DNA from: an uncultured Holophagales bacterium | Lineage (GTDB): Bacteria > Acidobacteriota > Thermoanaerobaculia > Multivoradales > UBA5704 | Direction of reading: 5' to 3' | Assembly: GCA_963842525.1 (NCBI GenBank) | Contig: CAWJGT010000009.1 | Span: 1,024,001-1,088,000 of the forward strand | DNA: 64,000 nucleotides | Shown: one piece after another, positions 52,144 through 58,053 of the stretch | How the letters are laid out: the number at the start of each line of letters is the position of its first letter | Position numbering within the stretch: the first letter of the stretch is position 1 | The notes under the pieces: generated by a model | The model's input: only the letters and a program-made list of their open reading frames with translations | Database searches by the model: none | What the model was told of the DNA's origin: nothing | Made by a program: the position numbers and the translations under genes

Positions 52144-52665
52144 ATGGCGAGACTTGCGGCTATTCCGGCGAGTGCGGCTAGTGCGCTTAGTTCTACGCCA
52201 TTCTGGCGAGGGGAGTTTCGCCCTGAAGCTGTGGGCTTGCCTCCAGTGACATTCAAGCTAAGGCAAGTGTTCGTGTTGATGCCGATGGAAGGCGAAGAGG
52301 CGGAGGAAATCTACCGGACACTGAAGGCCGCCTGTGCGACAGTCGATCTGATAGCAACGAGGGTGGACGAGAGGGTCGGTGCCCGAATCATTATGCAAGA
52401 TATCGACCGAATGATGGGAGAGGCCGAGTTTCTCATATTTGATCTAAGTAAAGAGCGCCCAAATGTCTACTATGAACTCGGCTATGCCCATGGTATTGGC
52501 AACAATGCCGAGAACATCTTATTAATAGCCCGCGAAGGCACGCATATTCACTTTGATGTTGCACCTCTACGGATCCAGTTCTATCGATCGACCGATCACC
52601 TCCAGTCTCTTGTTGCCTCACAGCTAAGCGCAATGAAGCAAATCACACGAGGATTGGTACGATGA
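52144..52665 (+). CDS. Cassette 4: nucleoside 2-deoxyribosyltransferase-like (NDT/TIR-like fold) protein
   Basis: FVLMP..RVD..I...AEFLIFDLSKERPNVYYELGYAHG..FDV. Confidence 0.78.
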   Translation: MARLAAIPASAASALSSTPFWRGEFRPEAVGLPPVTFKLRQVFVLMPMEGEEAEEIYRTLKAACATVDLIATRVDERVGARIIMQDIDRMMGEAEFLIFDLSKERPNVYYELGYAHGIGNNAENILLIAREGTHIHFDVAPLRIQFYRSTDHLQSLVASQLSAMKQITRGLVR

Positions 52666-52816: not shown

Positions 52817-53494
52817 ATGGCTGATCTGAAGCTGCATCACATTGGAGAGCCCTTGGTCGCCAGGATGCTTCAGAAGCTTGAGGCGGCCGGGCGGCTCTCG
52901 AACTTGGTCTGCGAGCGTATGCACGTCTCGGTTGAGGATGACATCGTTGCTGGGGGACTTCAAAGGCCGATCGAGTTCTTTCCGGAGAGAGCAACCCTCG
53001 GTGTCTCGGCCAATGGTGAAGAATTGATCTGTGATGGCGCACAGAAGGTTGATGTCCTCTGCGTGAGTAGTGGCCAGCGGGCCATGGCGTTCGAGCTCAA
53101 GCTGGGAGAGGAGCGACTTGGGACCAACGAGTTCGAGAGACGGTTCTTGGGAAAGTGCTCCACTTCCCATGCTGGTTCTCGGCTCAAGGGCTCAATGATC
53201 TCTGTACTTGATCGCAGTTTCTTGAGGACCGACGCGGCGGTTCTCCGGGCATCCGCATCGCCTCCTACTGGTGGGCCTATCAAGAAGTGGGATGTCGTCC
53301 GTCCTTGGTGGCTGGTCATCAGGAACAGTGTTTGGTTCCGATGGAAACAGTCCGGGATACCGGGCTTGACCAATGGGCGTATCCTCGTCATCGAGAAAGT
53401 CGTCCGAGAACTCGGAGGCGAGGAGGTCTTCAATGGTTTGGTCCGTGAGGTTCTATGCGGCAACTTTTTCGAGGCGTGGGAGATAGGTCAGTGA
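52817..53494 (+). CDS. Cassette 5: hypothetical protein, possible PD-(D/E)xK nuclease
   Basis: KVDVL....AMAFELKLG resembles D...ExK. Confidence 0.6.
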   Translation: MADLKLHHIGEPLVARMLQKLEAAGRLSNLVCERMHVSVEDDIVAGGLQRPIEFFPERATLGVSANGEELICDGAQKVDVLCVSSGQRAMAFELKLGEERLGTNEFERRFLGKCSTSHAGSRLKGSMISVLDRSFLRTDAAVLRASASPPTGGPIKKWDVVRPWWLVIRNSVWFRWKQSGIPGLTNGRILVIEKVVRELGGEEVFNGLVREVLCGNFFEAWEIGQ

Positions 53495-53500
53495 ACCGCC

Positions 53501-53562
53501 GGCCAACCAAGCGGCTCCAGCGGACGGCTGACGCCGCGCGCTGAGCCGCCACAGCGTTAGGC
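53501..53562 (+). other. attC site 5
   Basis: GGCCAAC (complement of GTTGGCC)..cagcggac..cgctga..GTTAGGC. Confidence 0.88.
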
Positions 53563-53579
53563 GTTTTGAGGCAGCACCT

Positions 53580-54278
53580 ATGAATCGAACTGAAAAACTG
53601 AACGAACTGCGAGCCCTCGCGCAGAACAAGCCGACGATCCCAAACGAGGAATTCGGCGCATGGCAAGCGCGGGTGTCGGCGCTCATTGGTTTCGACCGTC
53701 TGCAACAAGACAAGTTCCGCCACTTGGCGAGTTCGGCGACGATTCCCGGTGACGACTTCTTCCCGTCGTGCATGCGCCAGATGGAACAGATCCTCTTCCA
53801 AGCCATAGCGGACTTGGAGGTTGGTCCAGATGTCCCAGCCGAGCCACCTGCCGAATCCGGGAAGCCAATAGACGTATTCATCAGTTATTCGACTACCGAC
53901 AGAGCGATTGCAGAGGAGTTAGCCAATCGTCTCAGAGCACTTCAGCTTACAGTCTTCTTGTCGCACGACACCATCACAACGGGACCCGCATGGCGTTCAC
54001 AAGTCGGTGTCGTCCTTCGTCGCTGCGGCGTAGCAGTGCTGCTCTTGAGCACGCAATCACTCCACAGCGATTGGGTTCGTTACGAGATTGGAGCATTATG
54101 GGCACTTAATAAGCCTGTCGCTCCGGCTCTGCTCGACTGTGATGCATCTCAACTTCCTGAGCTTGTGCGCGATTTCCAATCACGCTCAGTTGCAACCGCC
54201 TCAGATCGCGCCGTCTTTTGCCACGAAGTGGAAAGACTGGTCCGCGATACTCGAACAAATGACAACCGAAACGCCTAA
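53580..54278 (+). CDS. Cassette 6: TIR-domain protein; attC truncated after GCCTAAC
   Basis: DVFISYS..D..AEEL..L..VFL, SDWVRYEIG (catalytic E); GCCTAAC at 54273-54279 complements GTTAGGC. Confidence 0.85.
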   Translation: MNRTEKLNELRALAQNKPTIPNEEFGAWQARVSALIGFDRLQQDKFRHLASSATIPGDDFFPSCMRQMEQILFQAIADLEVGPDVPAEPPAESGKPIDVFISYSTTDRAIAEELANRLRALQLTVFLSHDTITTGPAWRSQVGVVLRRCGVAVLLLSTQSLHSDWVRYEIGALWALNKPVAPALLDCDASQLPELVRDFQSRSVATASDRAVFCHEVERLVRDTRTNDNRNA

Positions 54279-54279
54279 C

Positions 54280-54380
54280 CGGAAATAAGTGCCAGCCGAA
54301 TCTAGCCTGGCCCAAACCCGAAATGAGTGGCCCAAACCCGAAATGAGTGCGGCCGAAATGAGTGCCCGAAATGAGTGCCA
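54280..54380 (+). repeat. Stuttered motif array: GAAATAAGTGCCAGCCGAATCTAGCCT followed by four CCGAAATGAGTG
   Basis: Read directly; replaces the rest of attC 6. Confidence 0.88.
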
Positions 54381-54399
54381 CCCATTAGAAGGCTCTTGT

Positions 54400-54820
54400 C
54401 AACGACCCACACGTCTCCCACCCGGGAGTGTTCGTTTCAAGAACGGCTCGTTCCGGCAAGATGTGCTCCCGTGTCGGGTTTGCGCGCCCGTAGTCTCGCT
54501 GTGCTTCAGGTGCGGAGATCCGCACCAGCCACCCATCGGGATCAAGGCGGGTCGGAGCCGGTGACGGCTCCGACCCGCCCCTGGCACGGTTTGCGTGCCC
54601 CCAGAAAATCTTCGGTTCCAGGTTCGTGTCCAAGGTTCAGGACAACCAATAAGGCTACCTCCTCCCCCCGAAGGGGGTTCAGAGGTGCCAGCACATTCGG
54701 GCTCACGACCTGGGCGCATCTCCGACAAAAGAGCCAAAAACGGTGGAAGACAGGGGCCAATCAGCCGTAGAGGGTTCTTTCGCCCAGCACCTAATTGCAG
54801 GCTCCCTGTCTTCCACCTGA
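54400..54820 (-). ncRNA. Putative bridge/seek RNA region of the IS110
   Basis: About 420 bp non-coding, several hairpins, position typical of IS1111-type elements, short matches to the target; RNA ends unknown. Confidence 0.55.
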
Positions 54821-54821
54821 A

Positions 54822-55838
54822 TCAACCAAAAGCTTGCGCCGACCTGAACGGCACCTGGTCGCGCAGGATGTAGAACGCGGCACGAGTCAGCTTGTTCGAG
54901 ATCGTCCGCAGGGCCACCAACTCGTTGGTCCTGGCCCGCTTGCGCTCGTAGAGACGCTTGGCGAGGGGCTCGAACCGAATGGCGAAATGTGAAGCCTCCA
55001 TGAACGCCCAGGACAGGTACGGGTTGCCATTGCGTACGTTGCCGGAACCCTTGACCTTGCCGTTGCTGAGGTGCTGACTGGGTACACAGCGGCAGTAGGA
55101 GGAGAAGTGGCCCGCCTCGGCAAAGCGAGCGATGGAGCCGGTTTCGTACATGATCGTCAGGGCAAGGGTCAGACCGATGCCGGGAATGCTCTCGAGCAGC
55201 TCGAACTCGGGCCTCAGTCTGGCCTGTTTGAGAACAGTTTTCTCGATGCCAGAGATTTGGTCTTTCAGCGTGCGGGCGATCGCCAGGCTGCTGGTGATCG
55301 TCAAGGCGATATGTGGGTCCGTGAATTGCTCCTCGACCTGCTCGGCCGTCATGCGCTTGAGCTCGCTGAGGGGAACTTGCGCTCCGGTGTAGCGCGAGAA
55401 GACGTTTTTGACGCTCAGCAAGCTGGCGGTGCGCTGTCGCACCAGAAAGGCTCGGCGGCGCAGTAGATCTCGCACCGCGCGCTCCTTTTTCGGATAGATG
55501 TGACCGGTGGGCAGAATGTTGAGGTGGAGCAGGCGCGCCAGCCACCGCGCGTCATGGCGGTCATCGACGTACTTCAAGCCCTCGTACTGGCGGACAGCGG
55601 AGGTGTTGACCAAGCGAACCTCGTAGCCGGCCTCCATGAGCCCATCCACCAACCAGTACCAGTTGAAGGTGGACTCCACGGCGGTCGCCTGGATCTGCTC
55701 TCGGAAGGGCTCCAGGGATTCCAGGACCGCCTCCAGACGGTTGGGCACCCGCCTGCTGAGGACCGATTGCAGTTGCTCGTTCATCACCACGAGATAGCTG
55801 TTGGTTGAATGCAAGTCGATTCCACAGTAAAGTCCCAT
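54822..55838 (-). CDS. IS110 family DEDD recombinase/transposase
   Basis: GIDLH, VEST, K..DRHDA..LA, SIPGIG, RF, SNGK, GNPYL. Confidence 0.93.
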   Translation of the reverse strand: MGLYCGIDLHSTNSYLVVMNEQLQSVLSRRVPNRLEAVLESLEPFREQIQATAVESTFNWYWLVDGLMEAGYEVRLVNTSAVRQYEGLKYVDDRHDARWLARLLHLNILPTGHIYPKKERAVRDLLRRRAFLVRQRTASLLSVKNVFSRYTGAQVPLSELKRMTAEQVEEQFTDPHIALTITSSLAIARTLKDQISGIEKTVLKQARLRPEFELLESIPGIGLTLALTIMYETGSIARFAEAGHFSSYCRCVPSQHLSNGKVKGSGNVRNGNPYLSWAFMEASHFAIRFEPLAKRLYERKRARTNELVALRTISNKLTRAAFYILRDQVPFRSAQAFG

Positions 55839-56171
55839 GCGCTCCTCCTTTCAGGGATTGGTCTCCCGACGAGCCTATCGCGGCTCGTCAGAAGGGAGGA
55901 GCCTTCTAGAGGATCATCAGCCGAATCTAGCCTCCTGAAGAGTCAATTGCACTGCCGAGCCGCGCTTCGGTGTGGCTTCGGTGCGCAAACTGGCAGGTGA
56001 AGGGCACCTGAGCACGCCGAGAGGTGGTCGCTCACTCCTTGTGTGGAGCGTTGAAAGCCTGTATCGCGCTTTTTGAGGGTTCCAGGGATAGACCTCTCCC
56101 GATCCCGCGCCAGGAAGTCAGCGGCCGGCCGGAAACTACGAAGGCTGTCAGCGGCCCGAAGTCCCGAGGGC

Positions 56172-57096
56172 CTACCCACTTACCCAGGGCAGGGCCGGCG
56201 GGAAGCTGCCTGCCGGGAAGACAACATCGCGCACTCCCGCCCGGAGCTTCTCCGCGGCGGTCCGGAAGGCGCCCACGAACTCGCCATAGGCTCGATAGAA
56301 CTCGAGACGGACGTTCTTGCTCGCCGCATGGAAGAGCGGAGCAGGAGATTTCTTCGGTTTGGCCGGCCGGTCGTGACGCTTCTGGGCGCAGACTGCTTCG
56401 GGACCCAGGACAGGACGGCCCATGGCCTCGCGGACCTCCGCAGCCCGAGACTCGATGCTGGCCACCAGAGCGGCGATCCGCTCGCGGTACTGTTGAGGAG
56501 TGAGATGCGCCCAGCAGGGGAGCTGCTCGAGCTTGAGGGTGTATTCGGTCGCGAAGTCGAGACGGTGGAAGGACTGGCCTCTCTGGCGGGCGGCGTACTC
56601 GCTCGAGCGGTTGAACCAGTGGCCGACGAGGAGAGCACCATCCAGCAGAGCGGGGACGACGCTGACGCCCGGCCAGTCCCGGAGGGTTTGGACAAGTCCC
56701 TCCTTGACCCCGTGGCTCAAAATGTACGCGAGGCGTTCGATCTGGGCCTGGGGCTCGTCGCTGATCGGGATGGCCTGAAAGCGGCGGGACCAGAACTTTT
56801 CCCGCCAGTCGGCCAGGCGCCCGGCTTCGCGGGCAAGATTTGAGTTGAAGTGATTCATGAATGAGGCGAGTCGGCGCGTGTCGTCGACCTGGAGAAGGAG
56901 GTGATAGTGCCCGGAGGCAAAGGCGAAGGCGATGAGGCGGACGGGGTAGAGCTGCCTGGGCGCGTCCGAGGGCGCCGAGGATGAGGTCATTGAGCTCCGC
57001 AGAGGGAGCGAGCAGGAAGCGGCCGTGGACGGTCCGTGTGGTGACCTCGACAAGTCCGCTCCCCTCGGGTGGCATGAAACGGAGTTTTCGACTCAT
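56172..57096 (-). CDS. Y1/HUH transposase (RAYT/IS200-like), frameshift near 56955
   Basis: MSRKLR..VEVTTR..GRFLL, then FASGHYHLL (HUH), FWSRRF, LAYILSHGVKEGLV..WPG (catalytic Y). Confidence 0.8.
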
Positions 57097-57230
57097 GCCC
57101 CTTAAAAAGACGTAAAACGGGTCGCCGATCTTGCATAACTCGGAAAAGTTCTTGCCGCGGACCGGAATGATGACTGAATGTCAACGGACGGCGGATCTGT
57201 GGAGGTAGTCCAGAGCGGTCCCGAGCGAAG

Positions 57231-57274
57231 CTGTTCGGCTGGCACTTCTGTCTGTTCGGCTGGCACTTCTGTCT
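57231..57274 (-). repeat. Tandem 21-mer ACAGAAGTGCCAGCCGAACAG x2 (minus strand)
   Basis: ctgttcggctggcacttctgt occurs twice. Confidence 0.9.
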
Positions 57275-57312
57275 GGCCGGCGCTGGATCAGGTGATCCAC
57301 GTCGTGACGCGC
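57275..57312 (+). repeat. 38-bp direct repeat, right copy (island boundary)
   Basis: Matches 44795-44832 at 37/38. Confidence 0.92.
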
Positions 57313-57323
57313 AACCCAGCATC

Positions 57324-57532
57324 CCCAGAGAGGCGGCCAGGGCGGTAGTCACCAGGGACCAGAAGAGCTCTGCGCCGGGATAGACCGCGAGCAGGCGGAA
57401 AAAGCTCCTGGCGCGCAGACGTTCAAAATTGTTCGACCATCGTGCGCGTTCGTCCGGATTGGACAGCAGCGGCAGCAGTGGCGTCTCCACTCCGATGCGG
57501 AGGATCAGATTGGCCGAAACGATTCCGGGCGC
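57324..57532 (-). repeat. 209-bp duplicate of the 3' end of the 1072-aa gene (other copy 58198-58406)
   Basis: Aligned by eye: 6 mismatches, no gaps. Confidence 0.92.
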
Positions 57533-57586
57533 TGCACCAAGGTGCCAGCCGCCCCTGAGGCACTTATTTCGTGGCGAGCACTTAGA

Positions 57587-57853
57587 TTAGGGGAAGTATC
57601 TGTAGATATCTCGGCGGTGGAGAATTCTGACCAGCGTTGCTTGGTCGCCTTCGATCATAAGACCCAGGCGGTAATCACCGATACGGATGCGATAGTACGC
57701 TCCGGGACCTTGGAGCTTTCTGAGCTGAGGGATCTCTCCAATCCCATCGGCGCACTCAACCGCCTCGATGACTCGCTTGACACGAGCCCGAGCTTCCGGC
57801 TGCCGGAGCTGCCGCAAGTCCCTGGCGAAGCTCTCGCGAAAGCTGGTTTTCAC
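57587..57853 (-). CDS. RelE/ParE family toxin
   Basis: SFARDLRQL..KLQG..YYRIRIGDYR..HRRDIYR. Confidence 0.9.
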   Translation of the reverse strand: MKTSFRESFARDLRQLRQPEARARVKRVIEAVECADGIGEIPQLRKLQGPGAYYRIRIGDYRLGLMIEGDQATLVRILHRRDIYRYFP

Positions 57854-58053
57854 TCTTCGAGGATCCGGAAAACCTCGTCTCGCCCCACAGGCAGGCTCTG
57901 CTCGCCTTCACGGATCGCATGGACCATGCCGATGTCCTCCAGAGCCTCTTCCAAGAGATCCAGCACAAGATCCCTGCGCTCTTCGAGTACCTCGATCATG
58001 GCCGTCTCGACCAGATTCTTGATCCTGCTGTCTTCAATGCTCGCGTCCGCCAT
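57850..58053 (-). CDS. Antitoxin partner
   Basis: Acidic 67 aa, EALEDIGM..AIREG..V.RDEVF; overlaps the toxin start. Confidence 0.8.
   Translation of the reverse strand: MADASIEDSRIKNLVETAMIEVLEERRDLVLDLLEEALEDIGMVHAIREGEQSLPVGRDEVFRILEE

Follow-up and report, generated by a model that had tools for sequence, protein, structure and literature searches.

Insertion sequences (IS) of the IS1111 group encode a transposase of 330-350 amino acids (aa) and have their non-coding region (NCR) downstream of its gene (PMC11187229, in the part available), and the group is defined by subterminal inverted repeats of 7-17 bp (PMC11208160, likewise in part). In the seekRNAs of IS1111 elements the top-strand match to the target lies 5′ of the bottom-strand match (Siddiquee et al., PMC11187229). 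Elements of the wider IS110 family that home to repetitive extragenic palindromic (REP) sequences are already known: ISPa11, of the IS1111 group, targets a Pseudomonas aeruginosa REP and has a seekRNA of 96 nucleotides (nt) (PMC11187229), and ISPpu9, whose modules are bounded by repeated boxes, is another (PMC12288879, in the part available). The window analysed here is a whole stretch of 64,000 nt from an uncultured Holophagales bacterium (contig CAWJGT010000009.1, positions 1,024,001 to 1,088,000), and we read the insertion at 54381-55917 in it, with a probability of roughly 85% and on comparative evidence, as an IS1111-group element with a predicted bridge/seek RNA aimed at a repeat of a HUH transposase system. 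It is a new IS110/IS1111-type element of a kind already known, an RNA-guided IS of the ordinary sort.

The element, its junctions and its target are listed in window positions; the sense strand of the element is the minus strand of the window.

54381..55917, minus strand: IS1111-group insertion sequence, 1537 bp without one copy of the core dinucleotide (four full copies with these exact ends; relatives L015-L027 alignable end to end)
54379..54380, unstranded: core dinucleotide CA (TG on the element sense strand), window-left junction (CA at both junctions of every full copy)
55918..55919, unstranded: core dinucleotide CA, window-right junction
55920..55925, minus strand: left-target bases TTCGGC (sense), from the flanks
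54375..54378, minus strand: right-target bases GCAC (sense), from the flanks
54283..54308, plus strand: uninterrupted copy of the target motif, 25/26 identical to the restored site

The sequence 54381-55917 was searched against its source genome (9.95 Mb, 34 contigs), and the 14 matches comprise four full-length copies (100, 97, 97 and 97% identity), one copy of 1010 nt without the window-left part of the element, four short fragments (315, 227, 111 and 58 nt) and five 34-nt internal self-matches, partial copies numbering five in all. A preliminary description, made by a model from the letters of the window alone, had set these limits and had restored the target by removing the element with one CA. 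Both hold: the first and last bases are identical in all four full copies, and the empty site, AAATGAGTGC-CA-GCCGAATCTAGCCT, is identical at 25 of 26 positions to 54283-54308, AAATAAGTGCCAGCCGAATCTAGCCT; one of the two CA copies is part of the target. The four full copies share the target motif AGGTGC-CA-GCCGAA. Read in the orientation of the window, all four have CAGCCGAA as right flank, and the left flank ends GTGCCA in three, while the fourth adjoins a partial element copy that has a GGTGCCA flank, as have two more fragments keeping the left end. Among flanks abutting host DNA, one common target is seen in 4/4 on the right and 6/7 on the left. Insertion is site-specific by this comparison, and duplication is limited to the core dinucleotide. 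The 338-aa open reading frame (ORF) is intact in three full copies and frameshifted in one, and the guide segments described below are identical in all four. To judge from these sequences, the element belongs to the IS1111 group of the IS110 family and has been active recently. Contigs from four DNA sequencing runs yielded fragments only, none of which spans the empty site or the circle junction; a relative on one of the contigs has 65 other letters, between conserved arms, in place of the 77 nt of the loop that bear the guides.

Some copies carry further changes. The 1538-nt copy at C9:853819-855356 has a broken transposase frame and a Y1 gene remnant (C9:855602-855817) as neighbour. At C9:241652-243504, outside the window, a full copy has its final 315 nt repeated behind it on the sense strand, and the composite occupies a normal target. 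The tandem junction, TAATGGG-TG-TGCTGGCACC, puts the breakpoint within the target-binding loop, between guide bases; guide-directed self-insertion was considered and rejected, because the junction (CGAA-TG-TGCTGG) matches neither guide. Fragments with the right end (3′ NCR) only lie at C3:1291385-1291495 (111 nt), C3:337239-337296 (58 nt) and C9:243189-243504 (315 nt), each with a GGTGCCA flank, and by analogy they are possibly relics or modules of the kind described for ISPpu9.

The protein and the layout of the ends assign the element to its family.

54822..55838, minus strand: transposase/recombinase gene, 338 aa, with a DEDD (RuvC-like) N-domain and a Transposase_20 C-domain (Pfam, NCBIfam, alignment to IS621 and ISCro4 chains)
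55839..55917, minus strand: short 5′ non-coding end, 79 nt, where the left subterminal repeat lies together with the -10 half of the promoter formed at the junction
55899..55908, unstranded: left copy of the subterminal inverted repeat, TAGAAGGCTC on the sense strand, set 9 nt in from the end of the element (conserved in relatives)
54386..54395, unstranded: right copy of the subterminal inverted repeat, set 5 nt in from the end of the element (conserved in relatives)
54397..54402, minus strand: -35 hexamer TTGACA of the joined-end promoter (GTTGACAA invariant in 13 close relatives)
55913..55918, minus strand: -10 hexamer GATGAT, 17 nt from TTGACA once joined; GATAAT in many relatives
54734..54817, minus strand: long hairpin followed by GUUUUUGG, directly 3′ of the stop codon, a terminator-like or processing element (fold; both arms covary in the alignment of relatives)

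The gene, the sole long ORF of the element, matches PF01548 (DEDD_Tnp_IS110; 54.5 bits, cutoff 29, 1.5e-14), PF02371 (Transposase_20; 65.6 bits, cutoff 21.3, 5.3e-18) and NCBIfam NF033542, 'IS110 family RNA-guided transposase' (188.3 bits versus a cutoff of 140). Its product shows homology to the transposases of ISCro4 and IS621, whose structures are solved (1.5e-10 to the IS621 chain, structures 8wt6 and others). Ser258 is aligned with the serine of the IS621 SG motif (...YESG...), yet the next residue is N, not G. Presumably D8, E55, D92/D93 and D96 (in GIDLH, VEST and DDRHDA) are the DEDD residues, an assignment from known motifs rather than from a structure-based alignment. The preliminary description had called the element IS1111-type, and we concur: subterminal repeats, a short 5′ end and a long 3′ NCR place it in the group by layout, its anatomy (79-nt 5′ end, 441-nt 3′ end, 10-bp subterminal repeats) fits the published description, and 338 aa lies inside the 330-350 aa range. 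The junction promoter that had been proposed is also there; joining the ends gives TTGACA (54402-54397), 17 nt and GATGAT (55918-55913), an arrangement conserved among relatives. A sigma-70-like promoter was not found within the element, and a simple terminator scan misses the long hairpin after the stop codon. The 441-nt 3′ NCR folds far better than its shuffles (z = -6.6).

Relatives were collected in two ways. Scanning one genome per species with the protein as guide confirmed 556 relatives, and the best 80 of these were retained; 13 loci, in Acidobacteriota, Holophagales and Thermoanaerobaculia metagenome-assembled genomes (MAGs), align with the element end to end (69-83% protein and 68.5-80.7% nucleotide identity). 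Strong conservation of 23 nt in the 3′ region allowed exact-pattern scans, which supplied more: 19 genome loci and at least 120 metagenome stretches, with flanks taken for 80. Motif-bearing sources totalled 198 among the matches listed. The conserved ends (..TAATGGG and TGATRATC..) served to locate the IS termini of relatives without recourse to the NCR; L054 and L061, with duplicated right ends, were left out, and six ambiguous loci were settled by hand. An alignment of 156 entire NCRs with MAFFT was too ragged and was replaced by one (A1) of the target-binding domain anchored between two conserved motifs, with 83 sequences and 151 columns. It contains the window's own sequence and 82 of the 92 unique anchored sequences (87-128 nt long), the other 10 being mis-anchored.

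The evidence for guidance is that two short segments of this domain change together with the flanks.

54618..54713, minus strand: target-binding domain of the predicted bridge/seek RNA, 96 nt, closed by helix P1
54691..54694, minus strand: right-target guide GUGC, 5′ side of the loop, pairing with GCAC of the right flank, top (sense) strand
54652..54690, minus strand: hairpin P2 between the two guides; its 5′ strand holds UGGCAC
54643..54649, minus strand: left-target guide UUGGUUG, 3′ side of the loop, same sense as left flank and core (TCGGC-TG)

On the sense strand the window target reads TTCGGC-TG-GCACCT. Across lineages the right guide is formed by the bases directly 5′ of a UGG and is complementary to the first right-flank bases, and the left guide, on the 3′ loop strand, is formed by the bases that end in a conserved UG and has the same sense as left flank plus core; UUGGUUG would pair with TCGGC-TG's bottom strand in seven pairs, two of them U-G. 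Guide and flank switch jointly in several separate classes: on the right GUGC/GCAC, GGGU or GGGGU/ACCC(C), GUGU/ACAC (L173) and ACGC/GCGT (L098, GCACGC with GCGTGC), and on the left, for example, AGCGCGUG/AACGCG-TG (L026), CCCUG/CCC-TG (L112), AGAUUUG/AGATT-TG (L125) and UAAACUG/TAAAC-TG (L088). Pairing was scored over six positions, core excluded, for unique guide/flank pairs and compared with 5000 shuffles. The right guide scored 177 versus 147.0 +/- 4.8 (n = 40 of 60) and the left guide 138 versus 98.3 +/- 6.3 (n = 34 of 35), with 0/5000 shuffles as high in either case. We consider it likely that GUGC (54694-54691) and UUGGUUG (54649-54643) are the exact target guides; the conserved UG after GUGC may in addition wobble-pair with the core.

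G-U pairing is frequent in the guides. In one MAG the same guides (AGGUGC; CGACUG) stand beside two targets, AATAGCC-TG-GCGCTTCAG (L096, L100 and L104) and GGC-TG-GCACCTATTT (L097 and L105), with a perfect fit to the latter and two G-U pairs needed for the former, so that one guide, AGGUGC, apparently serves both GCACCT and GCGCTT by wobble pairs.

The fold around the guides was judged by RNAalifold and a pair count over A1, and compensatory changes over the 83 lineages support P1, its extension P1b and the base of P2. P1 (54713-54704 with 54628-54618) has eight pairs, seven with two-sided changes, and 95.6% of its cells are paired. P1b adds two pairs, in which the CC of a conserved GAGCC meets a downstream GG (CG in 69 lineages, UA in 14, unpaired in none). 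P2 begins with the conserved UGG, its base pairs being G-C in 82/83 and 70/83 lineages, and the sequence of its stem varies without relation to the target. Counted over the entire structure, paired cells make up 90.6%, versus 81.7% after column shuffling and 21.8-45.2% after the partners are shifted by 1-3 columns. The internal loop that holds the guides is situated between P1b and P2, with CGAAUGUGC (54699-54691) as its 5′ strand and a 3′ strand that starts UUAUUGGUUG (54652-54643).

The sequence after P1 repeats the plan of this first loop (GAACC, 10 nt, UGG, a hairpin, CC) and suggests a second loop for the donor.

54604..54610, minus strand: probable right-donor guide GAUUUUC, pairing with G-ATGATC at the left IS end in 6/7 positions
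54530..54537, minus strand: probable left-donor guide GAUGGGUG, same sense as right IS end plus core (AATGGG-TG)

Both segments and the IS ends are nearly invariant, GAUGGGUG being conserved in all collected lineages. Compensating changes are seen in L042 (GAUGUGUG with the end AATGTG-TG), in L026, where GAUUCUC meets G-AGGATC, and in two lineages that combine GAUCUUC with G-ATGATC. From these and by analogy between the loops, GAUUUUC and GAUGGGUG rather probably read the IS ends, a step we hold less firmly than the target guides. Conserved in the opening part of the RNA domain, GCGCCCA (54716-54710) is complementary to UGGGUG of the left-donor guide (54530-54535) and is paired with it in the single-sequence fold. 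This pairing was considered but not adopted, L042 having a differing guide and no compensating change.

The target itself belongs to a repeat. The motif GTGCCAGCCGAA occurs 23 times in the 9.95-Mb genome versus 2.3 expected from base composition, an excess of about 10-fold, and it is found around a Y1 gene beside the element.

56172..57053, minus strand: Y1 (HUH) tyrosine-transposase-like gene, 293 aa, with target motif in its flanks (Pfam)
57234..57266, minus strand: two inverted GTGCCAGCCGAA copies on the far side of the Y1 gene (C9:1081234 and C9:1081255)

The 56172-57053 ORF matches PF01797 at 25.9 bits, barely over the cutoff of 23, and NF047646 (REP-associated tyrosine transposase) at 39.1 bits, under the cutoff of 80. 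A tblastn search with it gave 14 genome matches, and all five at 79% identity or more have the motif nearby, intact or split by the IS. Inverted motif copies bracket two full Y1 genes, that of the window and C3:734356-735135 (motif span C3:734102-735466), and because of this bracketing we regard the motif as a terminal or REP-like repeat of a Y1/HUH element. The preliminary description had likewise taken it for a real multicopy element tied to the neighbouring HUH system. Just upstream of the split target, GAAATGAGTG stands four times within 59 nt at irregular spacing (54320, 54340, 54356 and 54369; window 54320-54378). Similar right flanks (GCACYYAYTTSGGG, sense) adjoin relatives in other genomes (L097, L026 and L042).

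A different choice of guide bases had been made in the preliminary description, which quoted the sense strand at 54704-54684 correctly as GAGCCCGAAUGUGCUGGCACC and took GCC(C)GAAU and UGGCAC in it to match the two target flanks on opposite strands. RNA-guided targeting is kept as the probable reading, and so is the internal loop to which it pointed; the named bases and strands do not, and that assignment is very unlikely to be right. Its appeal lies in the length of the matches in the window: CUGGCACCU (54683-54691, sense) is identical 9/9 to C, the core TG and GCACCT of the target, an identity estimated at about 0.03 chance occurrences in the 441-nt region, and CCGAAU is 6/6 complementary to ATTCGG, though by estimate about two such 6-nt matches are expected by chance somewhere in the region. 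The CUGGCACCU coincidence comes down to about 5 nt, because four of its bases (C, UG and G) are fixed by guide and scaffold. A left match at any offset is mildly enriched (104 versus 93.5 +/- 4.2; 56/5000 shuffles as high, n = 35). In register, however, CCGAAU pairs with the left flank at the shuffle mean (67 versus 67.6 and 62 versus 59.5; 2920 and 1665 of 5000 as high, n = 35), its score of 6/6 is reached in the window's lineage only, and the CC of its GCC is taken up by the GG of the covarying P1b. The UGG and CAC of UGGCAC lie in the P2 stem, which begins with that UGG, and the P2 5′ strand does not covary with the right flank above shuffles (181 versus 173.9 +/- 5.3; 528/5000 as high, n = 52); the GCACC target persists in L099, L026, L108 and L042, while their P2 sequences are quite different. 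The bases first named are thus found in stems and without covariation with the target, an outcome that the preliminary description had itself said would speak against them. They flank the actual right guide, and the two segments of the same loop that do covary with the flanks do so on the opposite strands; the set first proposed, left-top and right-bottom, is also the opposite of that of IS621 (PMC11208160, in the part available).

The CUGGCACCU identity means that in the window and a few related lineages the P2 stem copies the right half of the target duplex, a copy not shared by other lineages that have this target. With the P2 5′ strand and UGG copying core and right half, and a 6-nt distal stretch of the 5′ loop strand complementing the left half's top strand, all four half-strands of the target could be touched by the RNA. 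It is very improbable that the target-binding loop of this lineage carries more than the two canonical guides. Alternatively, and as part of the same improbable reading, P2 could be an RNA mimic of the target duplex, masking or timing the adjacent GUGC guide, and the tandem partial copy with its breakpoint in this loop might be a by-product of such mimicry or of extra contacts. The case shows how far a match found by eye can be taken: 9 nt led to the correct loop, yet bases and strands were wrong, which nothing short of a comparison with relatives could reveal.

Several observations weigh against RNA guidance as we describe it, or against its details. The right guide of the window makes just four Watson-Crick pairs (GUGC/GCAC), its fifth position mismatching a conserved flank C where relatives with AGGUGC make six pairs, and some left guides fit poorly (L106 and L022 at 3/8; L088 only with a register shift of one). 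For the donor guides the support is three or four compensating lineages and the analogy between loops. Single-sequence minimum-energy folds are strongly structured but lack P1, and they were not used for the loop anatomy because they do not reproduce this covariation-supported helix. No Rfam family was matched in the element at E <= 1, and the sequencing runs listed as containing the stretch include none of RNA; the sole match in the region searched (53000-58000) is a chance snoRNA match at 57832-57885. Lineages with diverged ends are missing from the set, since termini were located by conserved ends, and the 0/5000 shuffle counts are not probabilities, since the lineages are related. A rival reading is that the protein or a REP-like hairpin shape picks the target and that the 3′ region is just a terminator or regulatory RNA, as the terminator-like hairpin after the stop codon would suit; flank conservation does extend past the guide-paired bases (GCACCTRT), and right flanks are alike across genomes (GCACCTAYTTSGGG in L097, L026, L042 and the window). 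That extra conservation is accounted for by the target being a repeated element, guide and flank switch jointly in many lineages, and the IS110 family is experimentally RNA-guided (PMC11187229 and PMC11208160, each in part), which makes selection by protein or shape highly improbable. Less probable still is that the copies are decayed relics whose shared motif goes back to one ancestral insertion spread by duplication of the Y1 element. Two insertions do adjoin Y1 gene copies, and one copy is frameshifted; on the other hand the outer flanks differ among the four full copies, which are 97-100% alike with three ORFs intact, and in a contig from another soil sample this IS end adjoins a different flank, again with AAGGTGCCA at its end.

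On the preferred reading, an RNA-guided element of the IS1111 group, the IS would excise as a circle that joins TTGACA and GATGAT into a promoter, and its 3′ region would yield a bridge/seek RNA with two homologous internal loops, both steps being drawn from the family. The second loop, with GAUUUUC and GAUGGGUG, would read the joined IS ends in the same manner as the first reads the target, and the recombinase would exchange strands at the TG core.

Other genes lie near the element. A TIR-domain protein is encoded directly upstream (53580-54278, plus strand; PF13676, 5e-19; weak ThsB_TIR), and an ORF at 52144-52665 (plus strand) has a faint CAP12/Pycsar TIR match under cutoff; these TIR genes may mark a defence-gene neighbourhood. 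Past the Y1 element lies a type II toxin-antitoxin pair, with a ParE-type toxin gene (57587-57853, minus strand; PF05016, 33.8 bits) overlapped by a RelB-like antitoxin gene (57850-58053, minus strand; PF25734, 50.1 bits).

Bridge/seek-RNA recombinases are under development for programmable insertion into genomes, for which natural pairs of guide and target supply the raw material. What the element contributes is a well-delimited family of the IS1111 group, from soil genomes of Acidobacteriota type, with about 40 distinct guide/flank pairs and a TG core, and it is another instance of IS110-family homing to HUH-transposase repeats, leaving the view of the family mechanism unchanged. The loop plan may already be covered for IS1111 elements in the supplements of the 2024 papers.

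Among described systems, ISPpu9 and ISPpu10 of Pseudomonas putida (IS110 family) resemble the element in site-specific insertion at a dinucleotide within a REP and in the presence of partial element modules in the genome; according to the available part of the same source (PMC12288879), ISPpu9 circles are without a hybrid promoter, whereas here the hybrid promoter is conserved. IS621, of the IS110 group, shares the DEDD and Tnp domains and, by prediction for the element here, two internal loops that read left-bottom and right-top strands, core included (PMC11208160, in part), but its RNA is encoded in the left end with the left guide on the 5′ side of the loop, whereas the RNA predicted here lies in the right end with the order reversed; subterminal repeats are 2-3 bp there (PMC11208160) and 10 bp here, where the core is TG. 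ISEc11, ISKpn4 and ISPst6, of the IS1111 group, have the same element plan, a transposase of 330-350 aa, a circle junction promoter and two short opposite-strand target matches that overlap at the insertion point (PMC11187229, in part); their targets differ, and a programmable seekRNA was shown there by experiment, whereas RNA and activity are deduced here. Likened by description, ISPa11 resembles the element in an NCR that follows the transposase gene, in its subterminal inverted repeats, in a multicopy target of REP type, in a 96-nt guide domain (here closed by P1) and in a top-strand match 5′ of the bottom-strand match, and it differs in its target and in its host phylum, the relatives of our element being found in Acidobacteriota/Thermoanaerobaculia MAGs.

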